From Nanobdellota archaeon (GTDB taxonomy: Archaea; Nanobdellota; Nanobdellia; CSSed11-243R1), in NCBI GenBank assembly GCA_021163365.1, contig JAGGWW010000006.1:4123-68122 (forward strand): a DNA stretch of 64,000 bases, written 5' to 3'. Shown here one piece after another: positions 13,800-54,184 of the stretch. The translations under genes and the position numbers were made by a program. Below the pieces are notes generated by a model, which saw only the letters and a list, made by a program, of their open reading frames with translations, did no database searches and was not told the DNA's origin. The number at the start of each line of letters is the position of its first letter. Within the stretch, counting starts at the first letter, position 1.

Positions 13800-13981
13800 G
13801 GGGCCGTGGTCTAGCAAACCCTTTCTTCCGAAGAAAGCCTTGGGAAAGAAGGGTTTGGGCAACTTGGTCTAGGATGCGTGCCTGGGGCGCACGTGGTCCC
13901 GAGTGACCCTTTTCTTAAGAAGAAAAGCGTCAACGGAAAAGAACTTAAATTGGTCCGGGAATTCAAATCTCGGCGGCCCCA
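13800..13981 (+). tRNA. tRNA-Pro(GGG) with two non-canonical introns (D-loop and T-loop)
   Basis: Acceptor GGGGCCG/CGGCCCC plus A73. Anticodon stem-loop CGTGC-CTGGGGC-GCACG (GGG at 13884..13886). T-arm CCGAG...TTCAAAT-CTCGG split by ~58 nt (13904..13961). D-loop split by ~50 nt (~13816..13865). Exact splice boundaries unresolved. Confidence 0.5.
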
Positions 13982-17982: not shown

Positions 17983-18159
17983 GCCCCGATAGTCTAGGCG
18001 CCCTTTCCGCCTTCTTTAGAAAAGAAGGCAGGTTGCCAAGAAAGGGTGGGGAAATGGCCTAGGATCCCGGTCTGTCGAGCGACCTTTTCAGAGAAAAGCT
18101 CGAAAAAGAAGAGGTCGTGTAGCAAGCCGGGGACCCGGGTTCGAATCCCGGTCGGGGCG
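17983..18159 (+). tRNA. tRNA-Asp(GUC) with D-loop intron (carrying a nested insertion) and anticodon-loop intron
   Basis: Acceptor GCCCCGA/TCGGGGC. Anticodon loop CTGTCGA between CCGGT/GCCGG. T-arm CCGGG-TTCGAAT-CCCGG. D-loop interrupted by CGCCCTTTCCGC...GAAAGGGTGGGGAAA. Starts 1 nt after tRNA-Tyr. Confidence 0.6.
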
Positions 18160-37731: not shown

Positions 37732-37908
37732 GCCCGCGTAGCTCAAAACCCTTTCCGCTGACGCGCAAAGCGTTTACGGAAAAGGTTGGCGAAGTGGTAG
37801 AGCGGCAGCCTGTTAAGCTGTAGGTCGCAGGTTCGAACGCACCCTTTCTTAAAAGAAAGCGTGCACGGAAAGAAAATCCGTGGGTGCTCGGAAGTCCTGC
37901 CGCGGGCG
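37732..37908 (+). tRNA. tRNA-Asn(GUU) with D-loop and T-loop introns
   Basis: Acceptor GCCCGCG/CGCGGGC; anticodon stem-loop GCAGC-CTGTTAA-GCTGT. D-loop carries AACCCTTTCCGCTGACGCGCAAAGCGTTTACGGAAAAGGTTGGCGAAG. T-arm GCAGG-TTCGAAC..[~55 nt]..CCTGC. Confidence 0.6.
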
Positions 37909-38610: not shown

Positions 38611-38764
38611 GGCCCGGTAGCTTACAACCCTTTACGCTTCGCGCAAAGCGTTGACGGAAAGGGTTGGCGAAGCCTGGTTAGAGCGCTGGTCTTATATGAC
38701 GCATAGGGAATTTCCCTATGTCTAAGCTAACCAGAGGTCCGGAGTTCAAATCTCCGCCGGGCCA
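38611..38764 (+). tRNA. tRNA-Ile(UAU) (putative) with D-loop intron and canonical anticodon-loop intron
   Basis: Acceptor GGCCCGG/CCGGGCC plus A. Mature D-arm TAGCTTAG-CCTGGTTAGAGCG after removing CAACCCTTTACGCTTCGCGCAAAGCGTTGACGGAAAGGGTTGGCGAA. Anticodon stem CTGGT/ACCAG; loop CTTATA then 32-nt intron with hairpin CATAGGGAATTTCCCTATG, then A. Confidence 0.5.
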
Positions 38765-40365: not shown

Positions 40366-40513
40366 GCGGGGGTGTCCGAGCCTGGCCAAAGGAGCAGGAC
40401 TTAAGTGCCAGTGCTAAGGAATCCTGTGCCTTAGTGGCTGCGAGGGTTCAAACCAGCCTTTCTTAGAAAGAAAGCCTGGGGAAAGAAAGGTTGTGAGATT
40501 CCCTCCCCCCGCA
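40366..40513 (+). tRNA. tRNA-Leu(UAA) with anticodon-loop intron and T-loop intron
   Basis: Acceptor GCGGGGG/CCCCCGC plus A; D-loop AGCCTGGCCAAA. Anticodon stem CAGGA/TCCTG with loop CTTAAG, ~15-nt intron, then A. Variable arm GCC-TTAGT-GGC. T-arm GAGGG-TTCAAAC..[~50 nt with CCTTTCTTAGAAAGAAAGCCTGGGGAAAGAAAGG]..CCCTC. Confidence 0.55.
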
Positions 40514-40985: not shown

Positions 40986-41420
40986 TGGGTAATACACAAC
41001 ATCGACTGTGAATATTGAATTCGGATATTTTTTTCAATTGAGCATTAACTTCTTCTCCAAAAATTCTTACAAGTTCAGAATTGTTAATCTCTATTTTCAT
41101 AAACAATATTTTGAAAGAAAAAAGAATTCTTAAAAAAAGAAAAACCAATTCCTCCAGAATTCAAACCAAAACCACCACATGAAATTGTCCTTGAAGCTTG
41201 GAAAGACTTGTCGAAAAAATTGGATAGGATAGAAAGGAAAATTGATTTGCTTCTAAAGAAAAAGTAACCGACAAATTTATAAATAAAAAAATTTCTGATA
41301 AGTTCTGTGACGACGGCGGGAAGACATTGATTGTCTTTTCGTGATTGTCAGGATTGCCCTGGCAAGACTCTGACGATACCTGTTCCAGGTATAGAGTGAG
41401 GAGTCTTTTCCGTCCTGACA

Positions 41421-41462
41421 GCACCCTTCTTAAAAAGAAGCGTGCACGGAAGAAGGGTGGAG
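41421..41462 (+). other. intron-family hairpin element within the 16S leader
   Basis: GCACCCTTCTTAAAAAGAAGCGTGCACGGAAGAAGGGTGGAG is near-identical to the T-loop intron of tRNA-Asn (GCACCCTTTCTTAAAAGAAAGCGTGCACGGAAAG...). It lies in the processing-stem region upstream of 16S. Confidence 0.45.
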
Positions 41463-42335
41463 TCACTTGCCCTCTGCCGGTGCATTGCGTGCTGGCAAAA
41501 AAGAGGGAATGAGTAAACAGGATTTCCTGTTTATGATGTAGGAAGGCAACAAGTGAAAATAGGTTGTGCTCGAAAGCGACCGTTAACTCCAGTTGATCCT
41601 GCTGGAGATCACTGCTTTCGGAGTCCGGCTAAACCATGCAAGTCAGCTGGCAGGGTGCTGCTGGCGGCGAACGGCTTAGTAACACGTAGACAACCTGCCC
41701 TTAGGTGGGGGATAACTCCGGGAAACTGGAGCTAATACCCCATAGGTGTTGGATACTGGAAGGTTCCAACACTGAAAGGGCTTAGGCTTTCCCCTAAGTT
41801 CCGCCTAAGGATGGGTCTGCGGCTGATCAGGCTGTTGGTGAGGTAACGGCTCACCAAACCTAAGACCAGTAGGGGCCGTGAGAGCGGGGGCCCCAAGAAG
41901 GGCACTGAGACAAGGGCCCTAGCCCTACGGGGTGCAGCAGGTGCGAAACTTCTGCAATGCCCGCAAGGGTGACAGAGGGACTCCGAGTGCTCATGCATTG
42001 CATGGGCTTTTGCCAAGTGTAAAAAGCTTGGCGAATAAGGGGTGGGCAAGACCGGTGGCAGCAGCCGCGGTAATACCGGCGCCCCAAGTGGTGATCGCGA
42101 TTATTGGGCCTAAAGCGTCCGTAGCCGGTTTGGTAAGTCTCTGGTGAAATCCATGCGCTTAACGTATGGGCGAGCCAGAGATACTGCCAAGCTAGGGACC
42201 GGGAGAAGCCAGGGGTATTCCTGGGGTAGGAGTAAAATCCTGTAATCCCAGGAGGACCACCGGTGGCGAAGGCGCCTGGCTAGAACGGGTCCGACGGTGA
42301 GGGACGAAAGCTGGGGGAGCAAACCGGATTAGATA

Positions 42336-42381
42336 GACCCTTTCCGCTGACGCGCAAAGCGTCTACGGAAAGTCCTAAATA
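42336..42381 (+). other. 16S insertion 1 (putative intron) splitting universal GGATTAGATACCC
   Basis: GACCCTTTCCGCTGACGCGCAAAGCGTCTACGGAAAGTCCTAAAT lies between GGATTAGATA and CCCGGGTAGTCC. It is near-identical to the tRNA-Asn and tRNA-Ile D-loop insertions. Boundaries +/- 2 nt. Confidence 0.6.
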
Positions 42382-42468
42382 CCCGGGTAGTCCCAGCTGT
42401 AAACGCTGCCTGTTAGGTGTTGCACATCGTTCGACGGTGTGCAGTGCCGAAGCGAAGGCATTAAACAG

Positions 42469-42499
<31 letters not shown>

Positions 42500-42677
42500 T
42501 TCCGGTTGGTTTGCCTCGGGTGCAAGCTGACCGTGACAGCTTACTTAAAGGAATAGGCGGGGGAGCACAACAAGGGGTGAAGCCTGCGGTTCAATTGGAT
42601 TCGACGCCAGGAATCTCACCAGGGCTGACAGCATGATGAAGGTCAGCCTGAAGGGCTTACCTGAAGCGCTGAGAGGT

Positions 42678-42787
<110 letters not shown>

Positions 42788-43193
42788 TCGCCACTAGTTG
42801 CTATTTCCTATCTTCGGATGGGAAAGCACACTAGTGGGACTGCCTGCGTAAGCAGGAGGAAGGTGAGGGCGACGTCAGGTCAGTATGCCCCGAATGCCCT
42901 GGGCTACACGCGGGCTGCAATGCCTCAGACAATGAGATGCAACGCCGAAAGGCGAAGCAAATCTCCTAAACTGAGGCTCAGTTCGGATCGAGGGTTGGGA
43001 CTCACCCTCGTGAAGACGGAATCCCTAGTAACCGCGTTTCAGCATGGCGCGGTGAATACGTCCCTGCTCCTTGCACTCACCGCCCGTCATACCATTCGAG
43101 TTGGGTGGGGATGAGGCTTCCCCTTTTGTTAGATCTTCGGATCTGGCAAAAGAGGAAGTCGAATCCTTGCTCAGCGAGAGGGGTAAAGTCGTC

Positions 43194-43236
<43 letters not shown>

Positions 43237-43377
43237 TTTAATTAAAAGGGTGAGGCAAGGAAGAAATTCCTTGTGCACAACCTAACACGAGTTGTTGCCT
43301 TCCTACAAACCTTTCTCAAAAAGCGTGCTGAAAATTTTCTTAAAATTTAAATACAAGCATCAACTTCCCACAAATAT

Positions 43378-43899
43378 ATGCAATTTAGAAATATTCTTGA
43401 CAAAATTGGATACATCAAAGAAAAGATTAATCTTAAAGAATTTGTAACTCTGTTTGTCATTGTTTTAATCCCAGAAATAATGCGGCACATAGTTTATTAT
43501 CTTGCCCAATTGAAAACAAATTCTATTGATTTCATTGCAAGCTTTGAAACAAGAACAATTTATTCTGCCAGCTTTCCAATTGCAGGAATATTCGAAGAAA
43601 TTTTAATTGGTTTAGTATACATCACATTGTGGTTCAAATTCAAGAAGTTGAGATTTTTAACGTATGCTTGGATTGCTGATGTTGCTTTTGATTTCATAAG
43701 TGTGATTTCATTTTTGCTAATAGGTGCAACACCATTGCAACTTTTAGGATTGCCACTAAAAATCAGATTCCTTTTAAGAGAAATAGTATTCTTCTACTTA
43801 ATCACTGGTCCGCTTTTAATGAAATACAAAATCGATGTAAAGAAGTTTGCAATTGGAACAACTGCATTAGGAATTCTTACAATACTTCTTTCAGTATAA
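43378..43899 (+). CDS. hypothetical integral membrane protein
   Basis: 173 aa, multiple TM helices. Lies between 16S and tRNA-Ala/23S. Confidence 0.4.
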   Translation: MQFRNILDKIGYIKEKINLKEFVTLFVIVLIPEIMRHIVYYLAQLKTNSIDFIASFETRTIYSASFPIAGIFEEILIGLVYITLWFKFKKLRFLTYAWIADVAFDFISVISFLLIGATPLQLLGLPLKIRFLLREIVFFYLITGPLLMKYKIDVKKFAIGTTALGILTILLSV

Positions 43900-43937
43900 A
43901 CGAAATATTTATAAATAACTACTGATTAGTAGTAACT

Positions 43938-45245
43938 ATGGAATGGCATTTCCCTGTAAAAGAACTTGAGGGTGCTTTTAAAAAAGGCAATTATGAAGAA
44001 TATAAAAACACCCTTTCCAAATATTCAAGATATTTAGCTAAGTCCTTTGAGCTTTGTGAGGATAAAGAAAAGTTTAACACATATCTAATTAACATGGTTG
44101 GGTCAGACAACCAATTAGACAACTTAATTAATTTTCATCTAATGGCATTTTATCTTAAACAAGATAGAATATTAAAAAACAAAAAAATACCTTTAAAGAT
44201 TGCTCAAGAGGATTTAACAAAATTATTAGCATTAAAACAAGCAATAGAATTTCAAGAAAGTTCTCCAAATTTAGTTGAAAGAATAAGAAATTTAAGTTTG
44301 GGCAAAGGAAAAATAAAAGAATATTTTAAAAAACAATTTAATGAGTTTGCTAATGCTCTTGAAAAAGGAGAGGTTTCACTTTTTCATATGTTTTATGAAG
44401 AGAGCGAAGCTTACAAAAAACATTTTAAAATAAGCTGGAAAGAATTTGAAAGAGGTTATGAAGAAAAATGCGTTAAACAGCTTGAAGATATAACATTTGA
44501 AGAATTTCTTCAAGGGAATATTAATGATGAGGAAGCAATACAAACAATTTCATGGGTTGATGAATTTTTAAGAAGAGATACATACGATAATCAAAGATTG
44601 ATTGAAATTGTTGAAAACAATATAAATGGACTTAAGGAAATAGAAGATGAAAACATTTGCGGGCTTCTTGATGTAATTAAAGCGTTTATGAAAAAAGGTG
44701 AAATAAACCCAAAGCTTGCTTTTTCTATTTTAGAGTTTATCACAGACAAAGATATATCTCCAATTGTTAGAAATTATGGTTCTGATTATTATGAAGCTGA
44801 AAAACTTGTAAGGAGTATTGCAAACTTTGTTAATCAAGGAAAAATAGAGGATTTGGTTGATATAAATGACTCTATTGTTGAAGAAGGATATGTTTATGCT
44901 CATAAAGAACCAGAGTATATGGAAGAATCTTATGTTGTTTGTATTGATTTCAATACAAGTAAATTGCCAGAAGATTTAAAGAAAAAAGTAAAAGAGGTTG
45001 AAAGTGCAAAAAATGGTGCTTCTCTTCTTAAAAAGATGTATGAAACAAGACTTCAAGAAATAGAAAGCATTAGAAGACAAATAAGGATGGATTACATAAA
45101 GCAAAAAGATGAAAAAATTCTTAAAAAAATAAAAGAACTTGATGAAGAAATTGAAAATTATTATGCAAGAATAAACTATCTTGATGATGCTATTTCTGGG
45201 CTAAGAGATTTAAGCTTTGATTTAAGAAAAAGCAAAGATTTATAA
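43938..45245 (+). CDS. hypothetical protein (helical, acidic/Lys-rich)
   Basis: 435-aa ORF. No motif recognised. Confidence 0.35.
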   Translation: MEWHFPVKELEGAFKKGNYEEYKNTLSKYSRYLAKSFELCEDKEKFNTYLINMVGSDNQLDNLINFHLMAFYLKQDRILKNKKIPLKIAQEDLTKLLALKQAIEFQESSPNLVERIRNLSLGKGKIKEYFKKQFNEFANALEKGEVSLFHMFYEESEAYKKHFKISWKEFERGYEEKCVKQLEDITFEEFLQGNINDEEAIQTISWVDEFLRRDTYDNQRLIEIVENNINGLKEIEDENICGLLDVIKAFMKKGEINPKLAFSILEFITDKDISPIVRNYGSDYYEAEKLVRSIANFVNQGKIEDLVDINDSIVEEGYVYAHKEPEYMEESYVVCIDFNTSKLPEDLKKKVKEVESAKNGASLLKKMYETRLQEIESIRRQIRMDYIKQKDEKILKKIKELDEEIENYYARINYLDDAISGLRDLSFDLRKSKDL

Positions 45246-45268
45246 AAGCTTTCTCTTTCAAGTTTTTT

Positions 45269-46021
45269 ATGAAGTATTTACTTTTGAGTGACGTGCATGG
45301 AGCAGATTTAAAAAAAGCTTACAATCTTTTAAGGGATTCTGTTGATAGCGTTATAATTGCTGGAGACTTAGATAGAGCTTACATAGGAAGACAATTAAAT
45401 GAGATTTTAAAAGAAGATGGAAATTCAATGTTTGTTCCTGGGAATCATGATTTTGCTCATATTAAAAAACAAATGATTTATTCTGGAACATTGGAAAAAC
45501 AAAAAATATCATCTATAGATATGTGGATGGAGTGGATAGATGATGAAGAAGCATATGATTTGCTAAATTCAATTATTTCTAATAAATTTAAAAACAATTA
45601 TCCAACATATCGTGGGAGTGCTGGAAGAAAAATTTCTTTTTCTTTGGAAAGCGGAGGAAATGCAATTTTAATCCATGGTGGTTTAAGTGGTAATTATCGA
45701 GGAGAACCAGCTGACTTATGGTATAGATTGATAACTCAAGAAGATTACATTTCTAATTTTAAAATAATGGAGCAAACAAATCATAATCTTATGATTAGGG
45801 GACATGACCATTTTCCACGTTTAGCATATATAAATGGAAAAAATGAGCTGATAGTGCTTGGAACAAATGAATTGTTAAACAAAGAAATTCAAATAACGCA
45901 TGATTTGGTTTCAATTACAATTGGAGCATTGTTCAATGGATATTATGCGATATTAAATGATGAAGAGAAAAAGAGAACAATCACATTTAAGTTAAATAAA
46001 AATTTAGCCTTTAAGCGCTAA
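45269..46021 (+). CDS. metallophosphoesterase (calcineurin-like)
   Basis: LLLSDVHG, IIAGDLD, VPGNHD, IRGHDH motifs. Confidence 0.6.
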   Translation: MKYLLLSDVHGADLKKAYNLLRDSVDSVIIAGDLDRAYIGRQLNEILKEDGNSMFVPGNHDFAHIKKQMIYSGTLEKQKISSIDMWMEWIDDEEAYDLLNSIISNKFKNNYPTYRGSAGRKISFSLESGGNAILIHGGLSGNYRGEPADLWYRLITQEDYISNFKIMEQTNHNLMIRGHDHFPRLAYINGKNELIVLGTNELLNKEIQITHDLVSITIGALFNGYYAILNDEEKKRTITFKLNKNLAFKR

Positions 46022-46633
46022 CTCTTTAAAGAATTCTTTTAAGAATTGCTTCATAAATTTTGTTCTTTGTTTTGCAATTCTCTTTCCAGTTTTTGTATTC
46101 ATTAATTTCTCAAGCTGTAAAAGTTTTTCATAAAAATGATTTATACTTGTTTGCGAGCCTTTGTAATTCTTCAAGTTAATCTTTGGTTTAATCTTAGGAT
46201 TGTAAATTGGAACTCCAAGTTTTGCACCAGTTGCAAAACATCTTGCAATTCCAATTGCGCCAAGAGCATCGAGTCTATCTGCATCTTGAACAACTTTTGC
46301 TTCTTTTGTTTTTAATTTTCTTAAAACATTTTTGCTAAATGAAATGTTTTCAATTATGTAAGAAACTTGAGAAATTATATTTTCATCAAGATTTAAACTT
46401 TTCAAAAATTTTTCTGCAAGACCTTGCTTTTTGTTTACAAACTTGTAGTCTTCTAAATCGTGTAACAATGCTGCAAGCTCAACTACAAAAGTATCTGCTT
46501 TTTCTTCTTTTGCAATCTTTTTTGCAAGCTTCCAAACGCGGTAAGTGTGCCACCAATCGTGTCCTGATTCTTCGCCATCTAACTTTTGCTTTACAAACTC
46601 TTTTGTTTTACAAATGATTTCCTTTTTGTTCAT
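46004..46633 (-). CDS. HD-domain phosphohydrolase
   Basis: H...HD...D: HTYRVW ... LLHDLED ... DADRLDALG. Confidence 0.65.
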   Translation of the reverse strand: MNKKEIICKTKEFVKQKLDGEESGHDWWHTYRVWKLAKKIAKEEKADTFVVELAALLHDLEDYKFVNKKQGLAEKFLKSLNLDENIISQVSYIIENISFSKNVLRKLKTKEAKVVQDADRLDALGAIGIARCFATGAKLGVPIYNPKIKPKINLKNYKGSQTSINHFYEKLLQLEKLMNTKTGKRIAKQRTKFMKQFLKEFFKELALKG

Positions 46634-46670
46634 AAGATTTATAAATATGAAAAAGGGATTTAAACATTGT

Positions 46671-46784
46671 GGGCCCGTAGCGTAACGGTAACGCGCCCGC
46701 CTTGCAAGAGCCGGTGGCGGAAGTATCGGAACCGCTGTCGGTTCTGATCGCGGGAGACTTCGGGTTCGAATCCCGACGGGTCCA
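46671..46784 (+). tRNA. tRNA-Ala(UGC) with canonical-position intron (~42 nt)
   Basis: Acceptor GGGCCCG/CGGGTCC with G3:U70 (Ala identity) and discriminator A. Anticodon stem CCCGC/GCGGG with loop CTTGCA plus intron. T-arm TCGGG-TTCGAAT-CCCGA. Confidence 0.75.
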
Positions 46785-46790
46785 TTTTGG

Positions 46791-47042
46791 GTGATTAAGT
46801 TGGATGATTATGTTAATCCTGAAATTCTAAAAAGAACTGAAAAGAATATTGATTATTCTCAAAAAGAATTATTAGCTGAAATATACGAACTTGCTTCAGA
46901 AGTTCGCGAGCTAAGAACAGCTCTTTCAGAATTATATCAAGTTGTATTAAACAGAGTTATAGATGAATTAGAAGAACTTGAGCCAGAAGATGAAGAAATT
47001 GTGTTTCCAGAAATTCCAAATCGTAATATTTATAAACTTTAA
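46791..47042 (+). CDS. small acidic hypothetical protein in tRNA-Ala/23S spacer
   Basis: 83-aa ORF with AT-rich composition like the coding genome. Could be a real gene or a chance ORF in the spacer. Confidence 0.25.
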   Translation: MIKLDDYVNPEILKRTEKNIDYSQKELLAEIYELASEVRELRTALSELYQVVLNRVIDELEELEPEDEEIVFPEIPNRNIYKL

Positions 47043-49045
47043 AATTTCTCTTAAACAAAGGCTGATGATTTATGATAATAAAATAGTGCCTTGAGCACCA
47101 ATGGTTTTTTCTTGTGAGTCAGCCTTTTATGTGTGCTTCCTGATCATACGATCTGGAAGCAAAAGGCATCCTCTTAACATGTTCAGCATGTTAATGATGC
47201 CGTGCATAGGGGAGCACCAGAATAGGCACTACGCTGCCAGGTGGATGGCTCGGCTCAGAAGCTGATGAAGGGCGTGGCAAGCTGCGATAAGCCTGGGGTA
47301 GCCGCACGCAGGCTAAGATCCCAGGATTCCCGAATGAGACTTCTTGGCATGCAGTAATGCATGTCACTCGGGTTGGTGATGAGCTAACCCGAGGAGGAAC
47401 TCCGCGAATTGAAACATCTTAGTAGCGGAAGGAAAAGAAATCAATTGAGATGCCGTTAGTAGGGGCGACCGAAAGCGGCATAGGGCAAACTGAACCATAT
47501 ATCGCAAGATATATGGGATGTGGTGTTTGGGAGCTGCGTATGCCAACTTCAAGGTGAAGCTGAACTCTGCTGGAAAGCAGGGCCATAGAGGGTGATAGCC
47601 CCGTAAGCGTAAGCCAAGAAGTTGGCGCAGTTTCCAGAGTACGCGGGGTTGAGATTCTCCGCGGAAATTGGGGGGCAATAACCTCCAACCCTAAATACTC
47701 TCTGAGACCGATAGCGAATTAGTACCGTGAGGGAACGCTGAAAAGTATCCAGAAATGGAGGTGAAAAGAACCTGAAACCTGGCAGCTACGGTATGCTGCG
47801 GCTCAAAAGGCTACTTCCTGAGCGAAGCTGTCGAAAGGCAGTTTTAGCAAAGGAAGTAGTTCCAGGGTTGCAGCGTTCCTTTCGGATAAAGAGGCAGGGA
47901 GTTTGTCTCAGTGGCGAGGCTAAGCTCAATTAAGAGCGGAGCCAAAGCGAAAGCAAAATGCGCGCAATCAGGGTTCTGATGAGGCGCTGCGTACGAAAGT
48001 GCGCGTAGTCACTGGGACAAGACCCGAAACCGCACGATCTACGCCTGGCTAGGACGAAATGAGGGGTTTCTCCCTCATGGAGGTCCGTAGGGGTGCTGCC
48101 TTTCAAAGCGCTCCCATGAGCTGGGTGTAGGGGTAAAAGGCCAATCATGTGCGGTGATAGCTGGTTCCTCCCGAAATGAGTCTCAGCTCAGCCCTACCAG
48201 AGCTTGCTAAGGGGGTAGAGCACTGATTGCGTATGCAGGGGTCGAGAGGCCTCGGTACGCAGTCAAACTCCGAATACCTTAGCAGCTAAGAAGGTAGGAG
48301 TGGGGGCACTGGGGTAAGCTCGGTGTCCAAGAGCGGAACAACGCAGACTGGAGTTAAGGTCCCAAAATGCTGGCTAAGTGATTTCGAACTTTGTCACCAG
48401 CCACAGACAGCCGGGAGGTAGGCTTAGAAGTAGCCATCCTTTAAAAAGTGTGTAACAGCTTACCGGTCGAGGCTGTTGGCGGGGAAAATGGACGGGTCTT
48501 AAGCCAGCTACCGATACTCCAGACCAGGATCCTTTGGATCCTGTGTGGTAGGGAGGCGTGTCGCATGGGCAGAAGCTGGTTCGTAAGGACCAGTGGACCG
48601 TGCGATAATGAGAATCCTGCCGGTAGTAGTAGCCTAGATGGGTGAGAATCCCATCCGCCTTAAGAGCCAGGGTTCCTCGGCAATGCTTCGTCAACCGAGG
48701 GTTAGTCGGTCCTAACCCATGTGGTAATTCCAACATGGGGAAAGGGAAGCAGGTTAATATTCCTGCACCACCTGGATACGTTCGGCAACGAAGGCTTGCC
48801 CAGTGACGCTTGGGGATAGGCAGAGCAGCACCGTCGTGCTGTTTAACAGGGATAAGTCCGGGGAGTTCTGTAATGGAGAGATCCGGACTAAACCTGGAAT
48901 AGCTGGCGTTTGCCAGTTCTGCTGATTCCTCGAGCCCGTGAAAAGCTGGGCAAGAAGGAGTCCAGGTGTCCGTACCGAGAACCGGGACAGGTGTCTCGGG
49001 CTTAGAAGGCTAAGGCGTGTAGGGATAAGTCAGTCAAGGGAAATC

Positions 49046-49078
<33 letters not shown>

Positions 49079-49825
49079 TGCCTGCGACAGTGATTCGATG
49101 AGAATTGTTGTCGCAGGTCGCAGTGACTAGGGGGGCTGGACTGTTTAACAAAAACATAGCTGGTTGCTAATCCGAAAGGATTTGTACAACCGGCGACGCC
49201 TGCCCAGTGCCGGTATCTGAAACCCTGGTTCAACAGGGCTAAGGACCGGTAAACGGCGGAGGTAACTGTAACCTTCTTAAGCAAGCGCAATGCCTTGCCA
49301 TTTAAATGATGGCTTTGCGAACGGCGTAACTAGGTCCCCACTGTCCCTGACTGACACCCTATGAACACACTATTCTGGTGCAAAGGCCAGAGACTCCCAT
49401 TGGGACGATAAGACCCCAGGAGCTTTACTACAGCCAGTACTTGCGTTTCAGGTTTTGGTGTATAGCGTAGGCAGGAGACGTCGAAGCACCCACGCTAGTG
49501 GGTGTGGAGTCGCCAATGTAACACTGCCCACCTGGATCTGGAGCGCTAACTTCAGGGAAAACCTGAAGGACAGGTATTGGTGGGTAGTTTGGCTGGGGTG
49601 GCACGCCCGCGATAAGGTATCACGGGTGCCCTAAGGTCGGCTCATCCGGGTCAGAAATCCGGAGAAGAGCGTAAGGGCAAAAGCCGGCCTGACTGTGTGT
49701 CAGACAGAAAGACACGCAGGGGCGAAAGCCGGGCCTAACGAACCACAGTGCCCTTTTATTGAGGGCCTGTGATGACCGAAAAGCTACCCTGGGGGTAACA
49801 GAGTTGTCGCGGACGAGAGCTCATA

Positions 49826-49912
49826 CAACCTTTCTTTTGAGAAAAGAAACGTTGACGAAAGAAAATTCTCTTTGGTCAAGCTTTCTCTTTTCAAGAGAAA
49901 GGTTGGCGCATA
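49826..49912 (+). other. 23S insertion 1 (putative intron, ~87 nt) at the conserved GAGCTCAYATCGAC site
   Basis: AACCTTTCTTTTGAGAAAAGAAACG...GCTTTCTCTTTTCAAGAGAAAGGTTGGCGCAT carries two copies of the CTTTC..GAAAG hairpin. It lies between GAGCTCATA and TCGACTCCGCGG. This is the same region where archaeal 23S introns are known. Confidence 0.55.
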
Positions 49913-49968
49913 TCGACTCCGCGGCTTGCTACATCGACGTCGGCTCCTCCCATCCTGGCTGTGCAGCA

Positions 49969-50013
49969 AACCTTTTCTTAGAAAGAAAAGCTTTACCAAA
50001 AGAAAAGGTCTGA
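49969..50013 (+). other. 23S insertion 2 (putative intron or expansion) within the H93-equivalent hairpin
   Basis: ACCTTTTCTTAGAAAGAAAAGCTTTACCAAAAGAAAAGGTCTG lies between CCTGGCTGTGCAGCAA and AGGCAGCCAAGGG. ACCTTTTCTT is exactly complementary to AAGAAAAGGT. Confidence 0.4.
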
Positions 50014-50404
50014 AGGCAGCCAAGGGTACGGGTGTTCACCGGTTAAAGGGGGTCGTGAGCTGGGTTCAGTACGCTGCGAGGCAGTACGGTTTTTATCTAG
50101 TGGGAGTGTCGGCCGACTGAGTGGAAGGTCCCCTTAGTACGAGAGGAACAGGGGATCGGCGCCTCTAGTCAACCGGTTGTCCGACAGGGCAGACGCCGGG
50201 TAGCCACGCGCTAGCAGATAAGTCCTGAACGCATCTAAGGACGAAGCTGCTCGCGAAAAAAGTCGGCCATGGCGCGGGAGTAGAAGACTCCGTTGATAGA
50301 GTCGGGGTGTAATCCCGTAAGGGGCAGCCCACGACTACTAATAGCGCCAAGCCTATTCTAAATCCCCTATGCACGGTGTCATATTTTCATCTTTAGAAAG
50401 AATG

Positions 50405-53884: not shown

Positions 53885-54184
53885 TGTGGGTGGGATAGGC
53901 AACTGTCGAACCTTTTCTTTGCTAAAAGAAAAGGTTTGAGGAAGTCCGTCCACCAAAAAGCCCAGCAGGGTAACCTGTCCGCAGAAATGCGGGGCTCTGA
54001 CGCAGAAAAATACCACAGCTTGTGCAAGATGATGTCGAAAGACTGATATTGCAAGCTTGTGGGTGAAATCGTCAGCCTGGGCGGTGCAAGCCTTAGGCGC
54101 TTAGTCGGATGTTGCCAATCCCTTCAAAGAAGTCGCAATTGTGCGACAGAGGGGATACAGAAGACGGGCTATTTCCCACCCACA
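53885..54184 (+). ncRNA. rnpB: RNase P RNA (putative, archaeal type A-like)
   Basis: GC-rich 300-nt non-coding block with terminal P1 pairing TGTGGGTGGGA/TCCCACCCACA and P2 ACTGTCG/CGACAG. P3 hairpin precedes the P4 strand GAGGAAGTCCG. GCAGGGTAACCTG and 3' ACAGAAGACGGGCTA match RNase P consensus (GGAAAGUCCGG...ACAGAANCCGGCUUA). Confidence 0.55.

Follow-up and report, generated by a model that had tools for sequence, protein, structure and literature searches.

Introns bounded by the motif known as bulge-helix-bulge (BHB) are removed from archaeal precursor RNAs through the splicing endonuclease and ligase route (PMC4033280, PMC4496867), and BHB insertions in archaeal ribosomal RNA (rRNA) genes are treated as introns (PMC4496867). 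Such rRNA introns, hairpin-only forms included, are already well known in Thermoproteota and their mechanism is ordinary; short introns made of a hairpin and a BHB core have been described in Thermoproteales (PMC4496867). For tRNA genes of Thermoproteales a "large-scale tRNA intron transposition" has also been reported (Fujishima et al., 2010, as far as it is summarised in PMC4033280). Here we describe two insertions, 87 and 47 nt long, that interrupt the 23S rRNA gene in a metagenome-assembled genome (MAG) of 32% G+C from a DPANN archaeon ('Nanoarchaeota'). The gene lies in a stretch of 64,000 nt (hereafter the window) of contig JAGGWW010000006.1, assembly GCA_021163365.1, with a G+C content of ~32% outside the rRNA genes. 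Very probably both insertions are archaeal BHB mini-introns that lack an open reading frame (ORF) and are excised from the pre-rRNA. We favor this reading because both have BHB junctions, because their removal restores the consensus exactly, because the junction in helix 89 (H89) covaries across 86 sequences, because in Desulfurococcales an intron encoding a homing endonuclease occupies the second site, in helix 91 (H91), and because members of the same sequence family interrupt tRNA genes. The initial annotation of the window had proposed an intron or an expansion segment, leaning towards the intron, and that preference is well supported for both sites.

The 23S rRNA gene, host of both insertions, spans 47217..50361 on the + strand and matches Rfam RF02540 (LSU_rRNA_archaea) over its full length with 2765 bits; the two insertions are its sole AT-rich islands that are not made of conserved rRNA sequence. 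Alignment to the covariance model gives 89 nt against 2 in the model between the flanks GAGCUCA and UCGAC, and 48 nt against 1 between GUGCAGC and GCAGCC, in agreement with the coordinates and sizes first assigned to the two insertions. Intron 1 (49825..49911, + strand, 87 nt) interrupts the terminal loop of H89 at Escherichia coli position ~2477/2478, and intron 2 (49969..50015, + strand, 47 nt) the terminal loop of H91 at ~2534/2535. The latter had been placed in an H93-like hairpin, which is incorrect, as H92 (the A loop) and H93 come after the insertion in the structure line of the model. The E. coli numbering, checked against the anchor positions A2451, A2503, U2552, U2585 and A2602 in 23S rRNA and against primers 806R, 907R and 1100R in 16S rRNA, is to be taken as accurate to ±1. 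Excision of insertion 1 in silico leaves GAGCUCAU/AUCGAC (here and below a slash within a sequence marks the junction or predicted cut) and yields GAGCUCAUAUCGAC, with the pattern and length of the 30 intron-less archaeal 23S genes compared, in which H89 reads GAGAGNNCAYATCGAC. Excision of insertion 2 leaves GUGCAGCA/GCAGCC; intron-less H91 is invariably xxGUGCAGNAGCxxCC, 16 nt long, and removal of the insertion gives xxGUGCAGCAGCxxCC.

The geometry of the BHB motif was calibrated on two tRNA introns of the window, those of tRNA-Lys(UUU) at 30/31 and tRNA-Leu at 59/60; the canonical introns that tRNA-Tyr and tRNA-Ala carry at 37/38 were set aside for this purpose, their motifs being relaxed and ambiguous. 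In the resulting register, strand A consists of the outer helix, four exon nucleotides, a 3-nt bulge cut after its second nucleotide and the intron helix, and strand B of the intron helix, four intron nucleotides, a 3-nt bulge again cut after its second nucleotide and the outer helix. The central helix is formed by 4/4 pairs in 8 of the 11 window introns, each of them complementary to a different exon context. At both 23S sites the register and the two 3-nt bulges are as expected, the central helix has 3/4 pairs, so that in either case the motif is relaxed and not strict, and helix H2 of the motif counts 18 and 10 bp, respectively.

In intron 1 the exon half of the central helix, GCUC (49819..49822, + strand), faces GCGC (49906-49909), three of the positions forming Watson-Crick pairs and the fourth a U.C mismatch; the 5' bulge AU/A (49823..49825, + strand), with its predicted cut after the second nucleotide, has its counterpart in a 3' bulge AU/A (49910-49912) that follows the intron half (together 49906..49912, + strand). 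Between them an internal rod (49826..49905, + strand), corresponding to H2, has 18 consecutive base pairs at its base and ~38 bp overall. Insertion 1 has a minimum free energy of -42.6 kcal/mol (z = -8.8 against shuffles). The two tandem hairpins proposed at first (49826-49854 and 49877-49905, with 13-nt arms that are 92% complementary) can form, but the single rod is far better, at -41.0 kcal/mol against -23.9 kcal/mol for three local hairpins summed; the first and last arms pair perfectly over 18 bp, while each local hairpin has one mismatch. The repeat CAUA...CAUA that brackets insertion 1 was also considered as the target-site duplication of a miniature inverted-repeat transposable element and was rejected, since the two AUA bulges account for the repeat; other copies of the family lack flanking direct repeats and have, each of them, a different 4-mer complementary to the exon.

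In intron 2 the exon half GCAG (49963-49966) and the 5' bulge CA/A (49967-49969) form the left side of the motif (49963..49969, + strand), and the intron half CUGA (50010-50013; CUGU in relatives) and the 3' bulge AG/G (50014-50016) the right side (50010..50016, + strand), so that GCAG:CUGA gives three pairs and one G.A. The core of this intron (49970..50009, + strand) has three arms, at 49970-49979, ~49983-49994 and 50000-50009. Arm 1 can pair locally with arm 2 or alternatively with arm 3, and the latter pairing, ACCUUUUCUU (49970-49979) with AAGAAAAGGU (50000-50009), is the perfectly complementary 10-bp outer stem that the initial annotation had recognised and that here constitutes H2.

For comparison at the first site, public metagenome contigs were pattern-scanned for 30-90 extra nucleotides in H89, which returned 106 contigs with 86 distinct insertions of 30-90 nt, all at the identical nucleotide. 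Perfect pairing of the exon with the four intron nucleotides at -6 to -3 is seen in 84 of these 86 insertions: where the exon has GCUC, the intron has GAGU (36 sequences) or GAGC (18), and where it has GUUC, the intron has GAAC (16), GAAU (9) or GGAC (3). In a gapless alignment of 81 junctions, 99.1% of the cells of the H89 helix are paired, and pair 19-34 is CG in 56 rows, UA in 25 and unpaired in none; the observed structure score was reached by 0 of 500 shuffles and also exceeded all slid controls. Outside the four exon-complementary nucleotides, the length, sequence and loop of the insertions vary freely. Since only these four are conserved, and since they covary with the exon, the pattern is that predicted for a splicing signal, unlike that of an expansion segment. 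In their domain V/VI exons the H89-occupied contigs share only ~70% identity with the window, and they belong to other DPANN lineages; on one of them a neighbouring protein has an identity of 90% or more to a protein of Woesearchaeota, and several of the contigs measure about 400-500 kb. The three-arm motif of the window recurs in a few of them (L058, L118 and L102/L106). Five other contigs (L063, L076, L092, L128 and L134) form a distinct lineage with the H89 stem GUCGCAGGC/CCUGCGGC and a conserved H89-loop intron of ~70 nt with an internal CUCUCCAG...CUGGAGGAG helix, which suggests vertical inheritance of the putative intron within this clade. None of the 30 GTDB archaeal 23S genes fetched is occupied at H89, and the description of this position as a 'classic' archaeal intron site could not be confirmed. 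A scan of genome contigs with a pattern containing U2504C, the matches of which were mostly Thermoproteota and Archaeoglobi, found no H89 insertion either; it supplied intron-less references and the H91 intron encoding a LAGLIDADG protein that is described next.

Among 42 distinct metagenomic H91 sequences from the contigs of the H89 scan, 15 have an insertion of 29-50 nt at the position occupied in the window. The metagenomic core reads GCAG AA/N ... CUGU AG/G, and the pairing GCAG:CUGU is found in all 15 mini-introns as well as in two LAGLIDADG introns, the 5' bulge having the form (C/A)A/A. Two Desulfurococcales MAGs (L026 and L030) carry at the same H91 nucleotide an intron of ~650 nt with the core GCAG CA/A ... 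CUGU AG/G, which in L026 encodes a 197-aa LAGLIDADG_3 protein (E = 7e-21); as nucleotide and core are the same, the position is a genuine archaeal intron site that spans phyla. The closest relative found, a Ca. Nanoarchaeia sequence (L020) with 80% exon identity, is without both insertions, and such patchy occurrence is typical of introns. Two Desulfurococcaceae MAGs contain further 23S introns, one after GGGGCU in H92 (E. coli ~2552; L031, ~5890, - strand) and one after GGGUUUAGAC (~2590; L025, ~230, - strand). Archaeal domain V thus shows itself, at the level of gene sequences, to be densely used as a putative intron target.

The same kind of insertion interrupts tRNA genes of the window. 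Its arms have the form CCUUUYCUU ... AAGRAAAGG, frequently followed by GCGUNNACGGAAA, and when the hairpins of the 64 kb are ranked by strength, 6 of the first 10 bear such arms; the layout is one nucleotide, arm 1, loop, arm 2, spacer, arm 3, four nucleotides complementary to the upstream exon, and two nucleotides. One or two non-canonical introns of the family are present in each of three tRNA genes, all with introns on the + strand. In tRNA-Pro(GGG) (13800-13981) a three-arm intron lies at 15/16 in the D loop (13815..13862) and a second one, with the family hairpin inside, at 53/54 (13904..13961). In tRNA-Asn(GUU) (37732-37908) a D-loop intron whose central helix is 3/4 (37746..37793) is accompanied by one at 59/60 (37838..37894). 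In tRNA-Leu (40366-40513) the intron at 59/60 (40453..40499) has a textbook hBHBh' structure composed of the T stem, the central helix UUCA:UGAG and an 11-bp helix of arms 1 and 3. Two more tRNA genes interrupted by the family were read by eye at 38611-38764 and ~17983-18158, one of them with the anticodon UAU. None of these five genes is reported complete by Rfam or ARAGORN, and within the tRNA-Asn gene Rfam gives a weak tRNA match of 69 nt (37780-37848). Splicing in silico turned sequences negative in ARAGORN into canonical tRNA-Pro(GGG), tRNA-Asn(GUU) and tRNA-Leu, and reproduced tRNA-Lys(UUU). The hosts are unmistakably tRNA genes, broken at unusual positions, and the family insertions within them can only be introns.

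Sequence relationships link these introns to those of the rRNA genes. The cores of the tRNA-Asn D-loop intron and of a 16S intron (at 793/794, see below) are identical in 34 of 35 nt (E = 5e-13), 23S intron 2 has stretches of 15-21 nt in common with the introns of tRNA-Leu and tRNA-Pro, and a further copy lies in an unannotated tRNA (38640-38671). Among the copies the arm sequences drift while their pairing is maintained. Within this genome the one family has spread to six or more tRNA genes, to three sites in 16S rRNA and to two in 23S rRNA.

These data bear directly on the possibility that the two insertions are lineage-specific expansion segments, that is, rods that lengthen H89 and H91 and are kept when the 23S rRNA matures. 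Both sites are terminal loops, the insertions fold as simple helical extensions, the central helix of each motif is only 3/4, and P3 of the RNase P RNA (see below) is a case of the same hairpin sequence residing permanently in a functional RNA. Members of the same family, however, must leave tRNAs, and across the 86 H89 sequences the sole conserved feature is a block of 4 nt covarying with the exon, length (30-90 nt) and sequence being otherwise unconstrained. The insertions are also sporadic, being absent together from L020 and present at H91 in only 15 of 42 sequences, and the same H91 nucleotide receives a homing-endonuclease intron. Moreover, the tips of H89 and H91 lie near the region of factor binding and A-site accommodation, where a rod of 38 bp would hardly be tolerated. 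We therefore consider retention as expansion segments unlikely.

Several observations weigh against the interpretation as functional mini-introns. Each 23S central helix contains one non-pair (U.C in H89, G.A in H91), and of the 81 aligned rows the window alone is mismatched at H89 pair 20-33. At H91 one exon nucleotide (U) intervenes between the outer and the central helix, so that this motif is relaxed rather than strict; the extra U is also present in the Desulfurococcales LAGLIDADG intron at H91. In addition, a naive scan for the BHB pattern is unspecific, with 219 matches on one strand of the window, for which reason the motif alone is weak evidence and the weight is placed on the alignment-defined boundaries and the comparative data. 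Given the mismatches in both central helices, the 23S copies could be poorly spliced or decaying. In its strong form this would mean that they are unspliceable relics and that the rRNA copy is impaired or non-functional, which we regard as very unlikely. Mismatches at these positions are indeed almost never seen in the metagenomic homologues. Yet the 23S gene is full-length and well conserved (2765 bits), its sequence is identical in three independent assemblies, the obligatory D-loop intron of tRNA-Asn is also 3/4, and acceptance of relaxed motifs has been reported for DPANN variants of the splicing endonuclease EndA (PMC5829648). By analogy with the tRNA-Asn intron, which must be spliced, a single central-helix mismatch is probably tolerated in the 23S introns. 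Contigs of the same organism are of no use for comparison here, since their 23S sequences are 99.9-100% identical. As to self-splicing introns of group I or group II, no Rfam intron family reaches its gathering score in the window, and the two insertions, at 87 and 47 nt, fall short of the hundreds of nucleotides of such ribozymes.

If the two insertions are introns of this type, the exon loop GCUC of H89 or GCAG of H91 would pair with GCGC or CUGA near the 3' end of the intron, giving a short helix flanked by the bulges AU/A and AU/A in H89 and CA/A and AG/G in H91, and the long intron stem of arm 1 and the last arm would close the motif. By analogy with tRNA splicing, EndA, the tRNA-splicing endonuclease, would cut each bulge after its second nucleotide, and a ligase of the RtcB type would then join the exons and circularise the intron, restoring the universal loops GAGCUCAUAUCGAC and GUGCAGCAGCAGCC. 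The EndA variants of DPANN lineages that carry an extra (L3) loop are associated with many non-canonical tRNA introns (PMC5829648); by analogy, such variants would fit both the many odd tRNA introns of the window and its relaxed motifs. Cleavage and ligation at the 23S sites are what we infer from these sequences. A 23S rRNA left in fragments, from which the intervening sequences are excised with no religation of the exons, as in bacterial intervening sequences and fragmented organellar rRNAs, seems to us quite improbable. Breaks in terminal loops are tolerated elsewhere and EndA alone would suffice for the cutting, ligation at the 23S sites being the inferred step; against this, the tRNA members of the family need ligation to give functional tRNAs, and a ligase must therefore be active on the same kind of ends. 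To our knowledge, every BHB intron of archaeal rRNA that has been characterised is spliced.

The 16S rRNA gene of the window (41586-43234, Rfam match) contains three further mini-introns on the + strand, located by alignment with six other archaeal 16S genes: 46 nt at E. coli 793/794 (42335..42380, central helix UUAG:CUAA, 4/4), 43 nt at 908/909 (42500..42542, GCUG:CAGC, 4/4) and 45 nt, a three-arm member of the family, at ~1079/1080 (42708..42752, ACCG:CGGU, 4/4). In the calibrated register all three have a perfect 4-bp helix between exon and intron and 3-nt bulges. Locus 908 is a known archaeal intron site (PMC4496867), and the introns at 793/794 and 908/909 disrupt the sites of the 'universal' primers 806R and 907/926R. 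A family hairpin, GCACCCUUCUUAAAAAGAAGCGUGCACGGAAGAAGGGUG, is also found in the 16S leader (41416-41465), ~120 nt upstream of the 16S gene; the copy itself (41427-41451) is identical in 23 of 25 nt to part of the tRNA-Asn 59/60 intron.

The initial annotation had also noted that the stem-loop of insertion 2 resembles P3 of the RNase P RNA (gene at 53886-54183, Rfam match). The resemblance is real, although the coordinates first given for P3 were off by 2 nt: the exact 11-mer AACCTTTTCTT is common to both and has three exact occurrences in the window, and when one mismatch is allowed there are 20 matches against 7.3 expected, a number reached by 0 of 100 shuffles. P3 (53906..53939, + strand) is a continuous 14-bp helix whose distal part is the family arm sequence; in the Rfam alignment it is ~17 nt longer than the RF00373 consensus and has no bulges. 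A continuous helix without bulges led us to reject P3 as an intron, and on the Rfam model it is a permanent stem. In the same RNA a 36-nt insertion relative to the Rfam model, AAUCCCUUCAAAGAAGUCGCAAUUGUGCGACAGAGG (54117-54152), lies directly before the conserved ACAGAAG; it was likewise rejected as a BHB intron, the sole candidate register being one that would remove ACAGAAG, and is probably a lineage-specific extra hairpin.

From the shared hairpin it had been proposed that the motif is recognised by one RNA-binding protein, for example L7Ae or L30e, and would have been placed in 23S rRNA and RNase P RNA as a binding site. The same 11-nt arms do occur in 23S intron 2 and in P3, but the idea is unsupported, since the kink-turn-like feature is absent: the family hairpins and P3 are uninterrupted Watson-Crick helices with loops of 3-4 nt and have no asymmetric internal loop. 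Most occurrences of the motif, furthermore, lie within segments that tRNAs lose, and its arms drift while pairing persists, which together make a shared binding site highly improbable. Because the cores of the tRNA-Asn and 16S introns are identical in 34 of 35 nt, the sharing of the hairpin would be explained more simply by descent from a mobile or duplicating intron family.

We tentatively entertain a wider proposal: that this ORF-less BHB family is, or recently was, mobile between classes of RNA genes, passing from the D and T loops of tRNAs into 16S and 23S rRNA, that P3 may be a captured hairpin, and that H89 and H91 introns are a widespread and so far overlooked feature of the rRNA genes of DPANN archaea. 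If true, such mobility would point to a gain of introns independent of homing endonucleases, for example by reverse splicing through EndA and RtcB followed by reverse transcription or recombination. The nearly identical cores in tRNA and 16S genes and the more than 100 independent occupants of one 23S site constitute data for models of transposition by which archaeal introns without ORFs spread, and they permit a test of how much mismatch the splicing endonucleases of DPANN archaea tolerate. Provided that splicing takes place, it would have to be completed five times, in the decoding and peptidyl-transferase regions, before the ribosome works. For annotation, the consequence is that five or more tRNA genes of the window escape the standard tools, which also return over-long rRNAs, and that recognition of the family repairs the gene set. 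As primer sites are interrupted by 16S introns, and segments no less conserved by the 23S introns, amplicon surveys are likely to under-detect organisms of this kind or to obtain products of incorrect size from them.

Some features of the rRNA locus may be recorded here. The 16S and 23S genes are separated by ~4 kb (43234-47217) that contain three ORFs on the + strand (43378-46021), one of them a metallophosphoesterase, and an HD-domain ORF on the - strand; immediately upstream of the 23S gene lies tRNA-Ala(UGC) (46671-46784), with an intron of ~41 nt. No 5S rRNA was found within the 64-kb window. In the peptidyl-transferase centre two normally very conserved positions are substituted, with C at 49938 (E. 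coli U2504) and G at 49795 (A2448); U2504C is also present in MAGs of Ignisphaera, Desulfurococcaceae, Sulfolobales and Archaeoglobaceae and is therefore not unique to the window.

How does this system compare with those already known? In the literature searched, neither the H89-loop (~2477/2478) and H91-loop (~2534/2535) sites nor rRNA mini-introns of DPANN archaea were found described, which does not by itself prove novelty; the two sites, their wide occurrence among metagenomic 23S genes of DPANN type, the presence of five mini-introns in one operon and a family spanning tRNA, 16S and 23S genes thus appear to be undescribed. Expansion segments of rRNA (those of eukaryotes, and ES9/ES39 of Asgard archaea) and the intervening sequences of bacterial 23S rRNA are similar in that extra helices emerge from terminal loops. 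Expansion segments, however, are retained and conserved within lineages, and bacterial intervening sequences are removed by RNase III with no ligation, unlike what is proposed for the window; both lack a 4-nt element that is complementary to the exon and lies between 3-nt bulges, and both lack sequence shared with tRNA introns. The tRNA intron families of Thermoproteales, as far as they are summarised in PMC4033280, resemble the present one in that near-identical cores occupy positions that are not homologous and differ in the nucleotides next to the junctions, which alone are adapted to the exon, and in the many non-canonical positions occupied (15/16, 30/31, 53/54 and 59/60). The window family, by contrast, crosses classes of RNA (tRNA, 16S and 23S), whereas the literature searched reports such families from tRNA genes only. 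The rRNA BHB introns of Thermoproteota (Desulfurococcus, Pyrobaculum, Aeropyrum and Thermoproteus; Jay and Inskeep, 2015, PMC4496867) share with those of the window the interruption of a conserved rRNA segment, the BHB core formed by exon and intron, the lack of a ribozyme, the ORF-less hairpin forms and the 16S locus 908, and the LAGLIDADG-encoding intron of the Desulfurococcales MAGs L026 and L030 has both the H91 position and the core in common with it. What sets the window apart from the Thermoproteota introns is its host, a mesophile-like DPANN archaeon of 32% G+C, the five mini-introns of 43-87 nt within one rRNA operon, and the 23S copies with one mismatch in each central helix.

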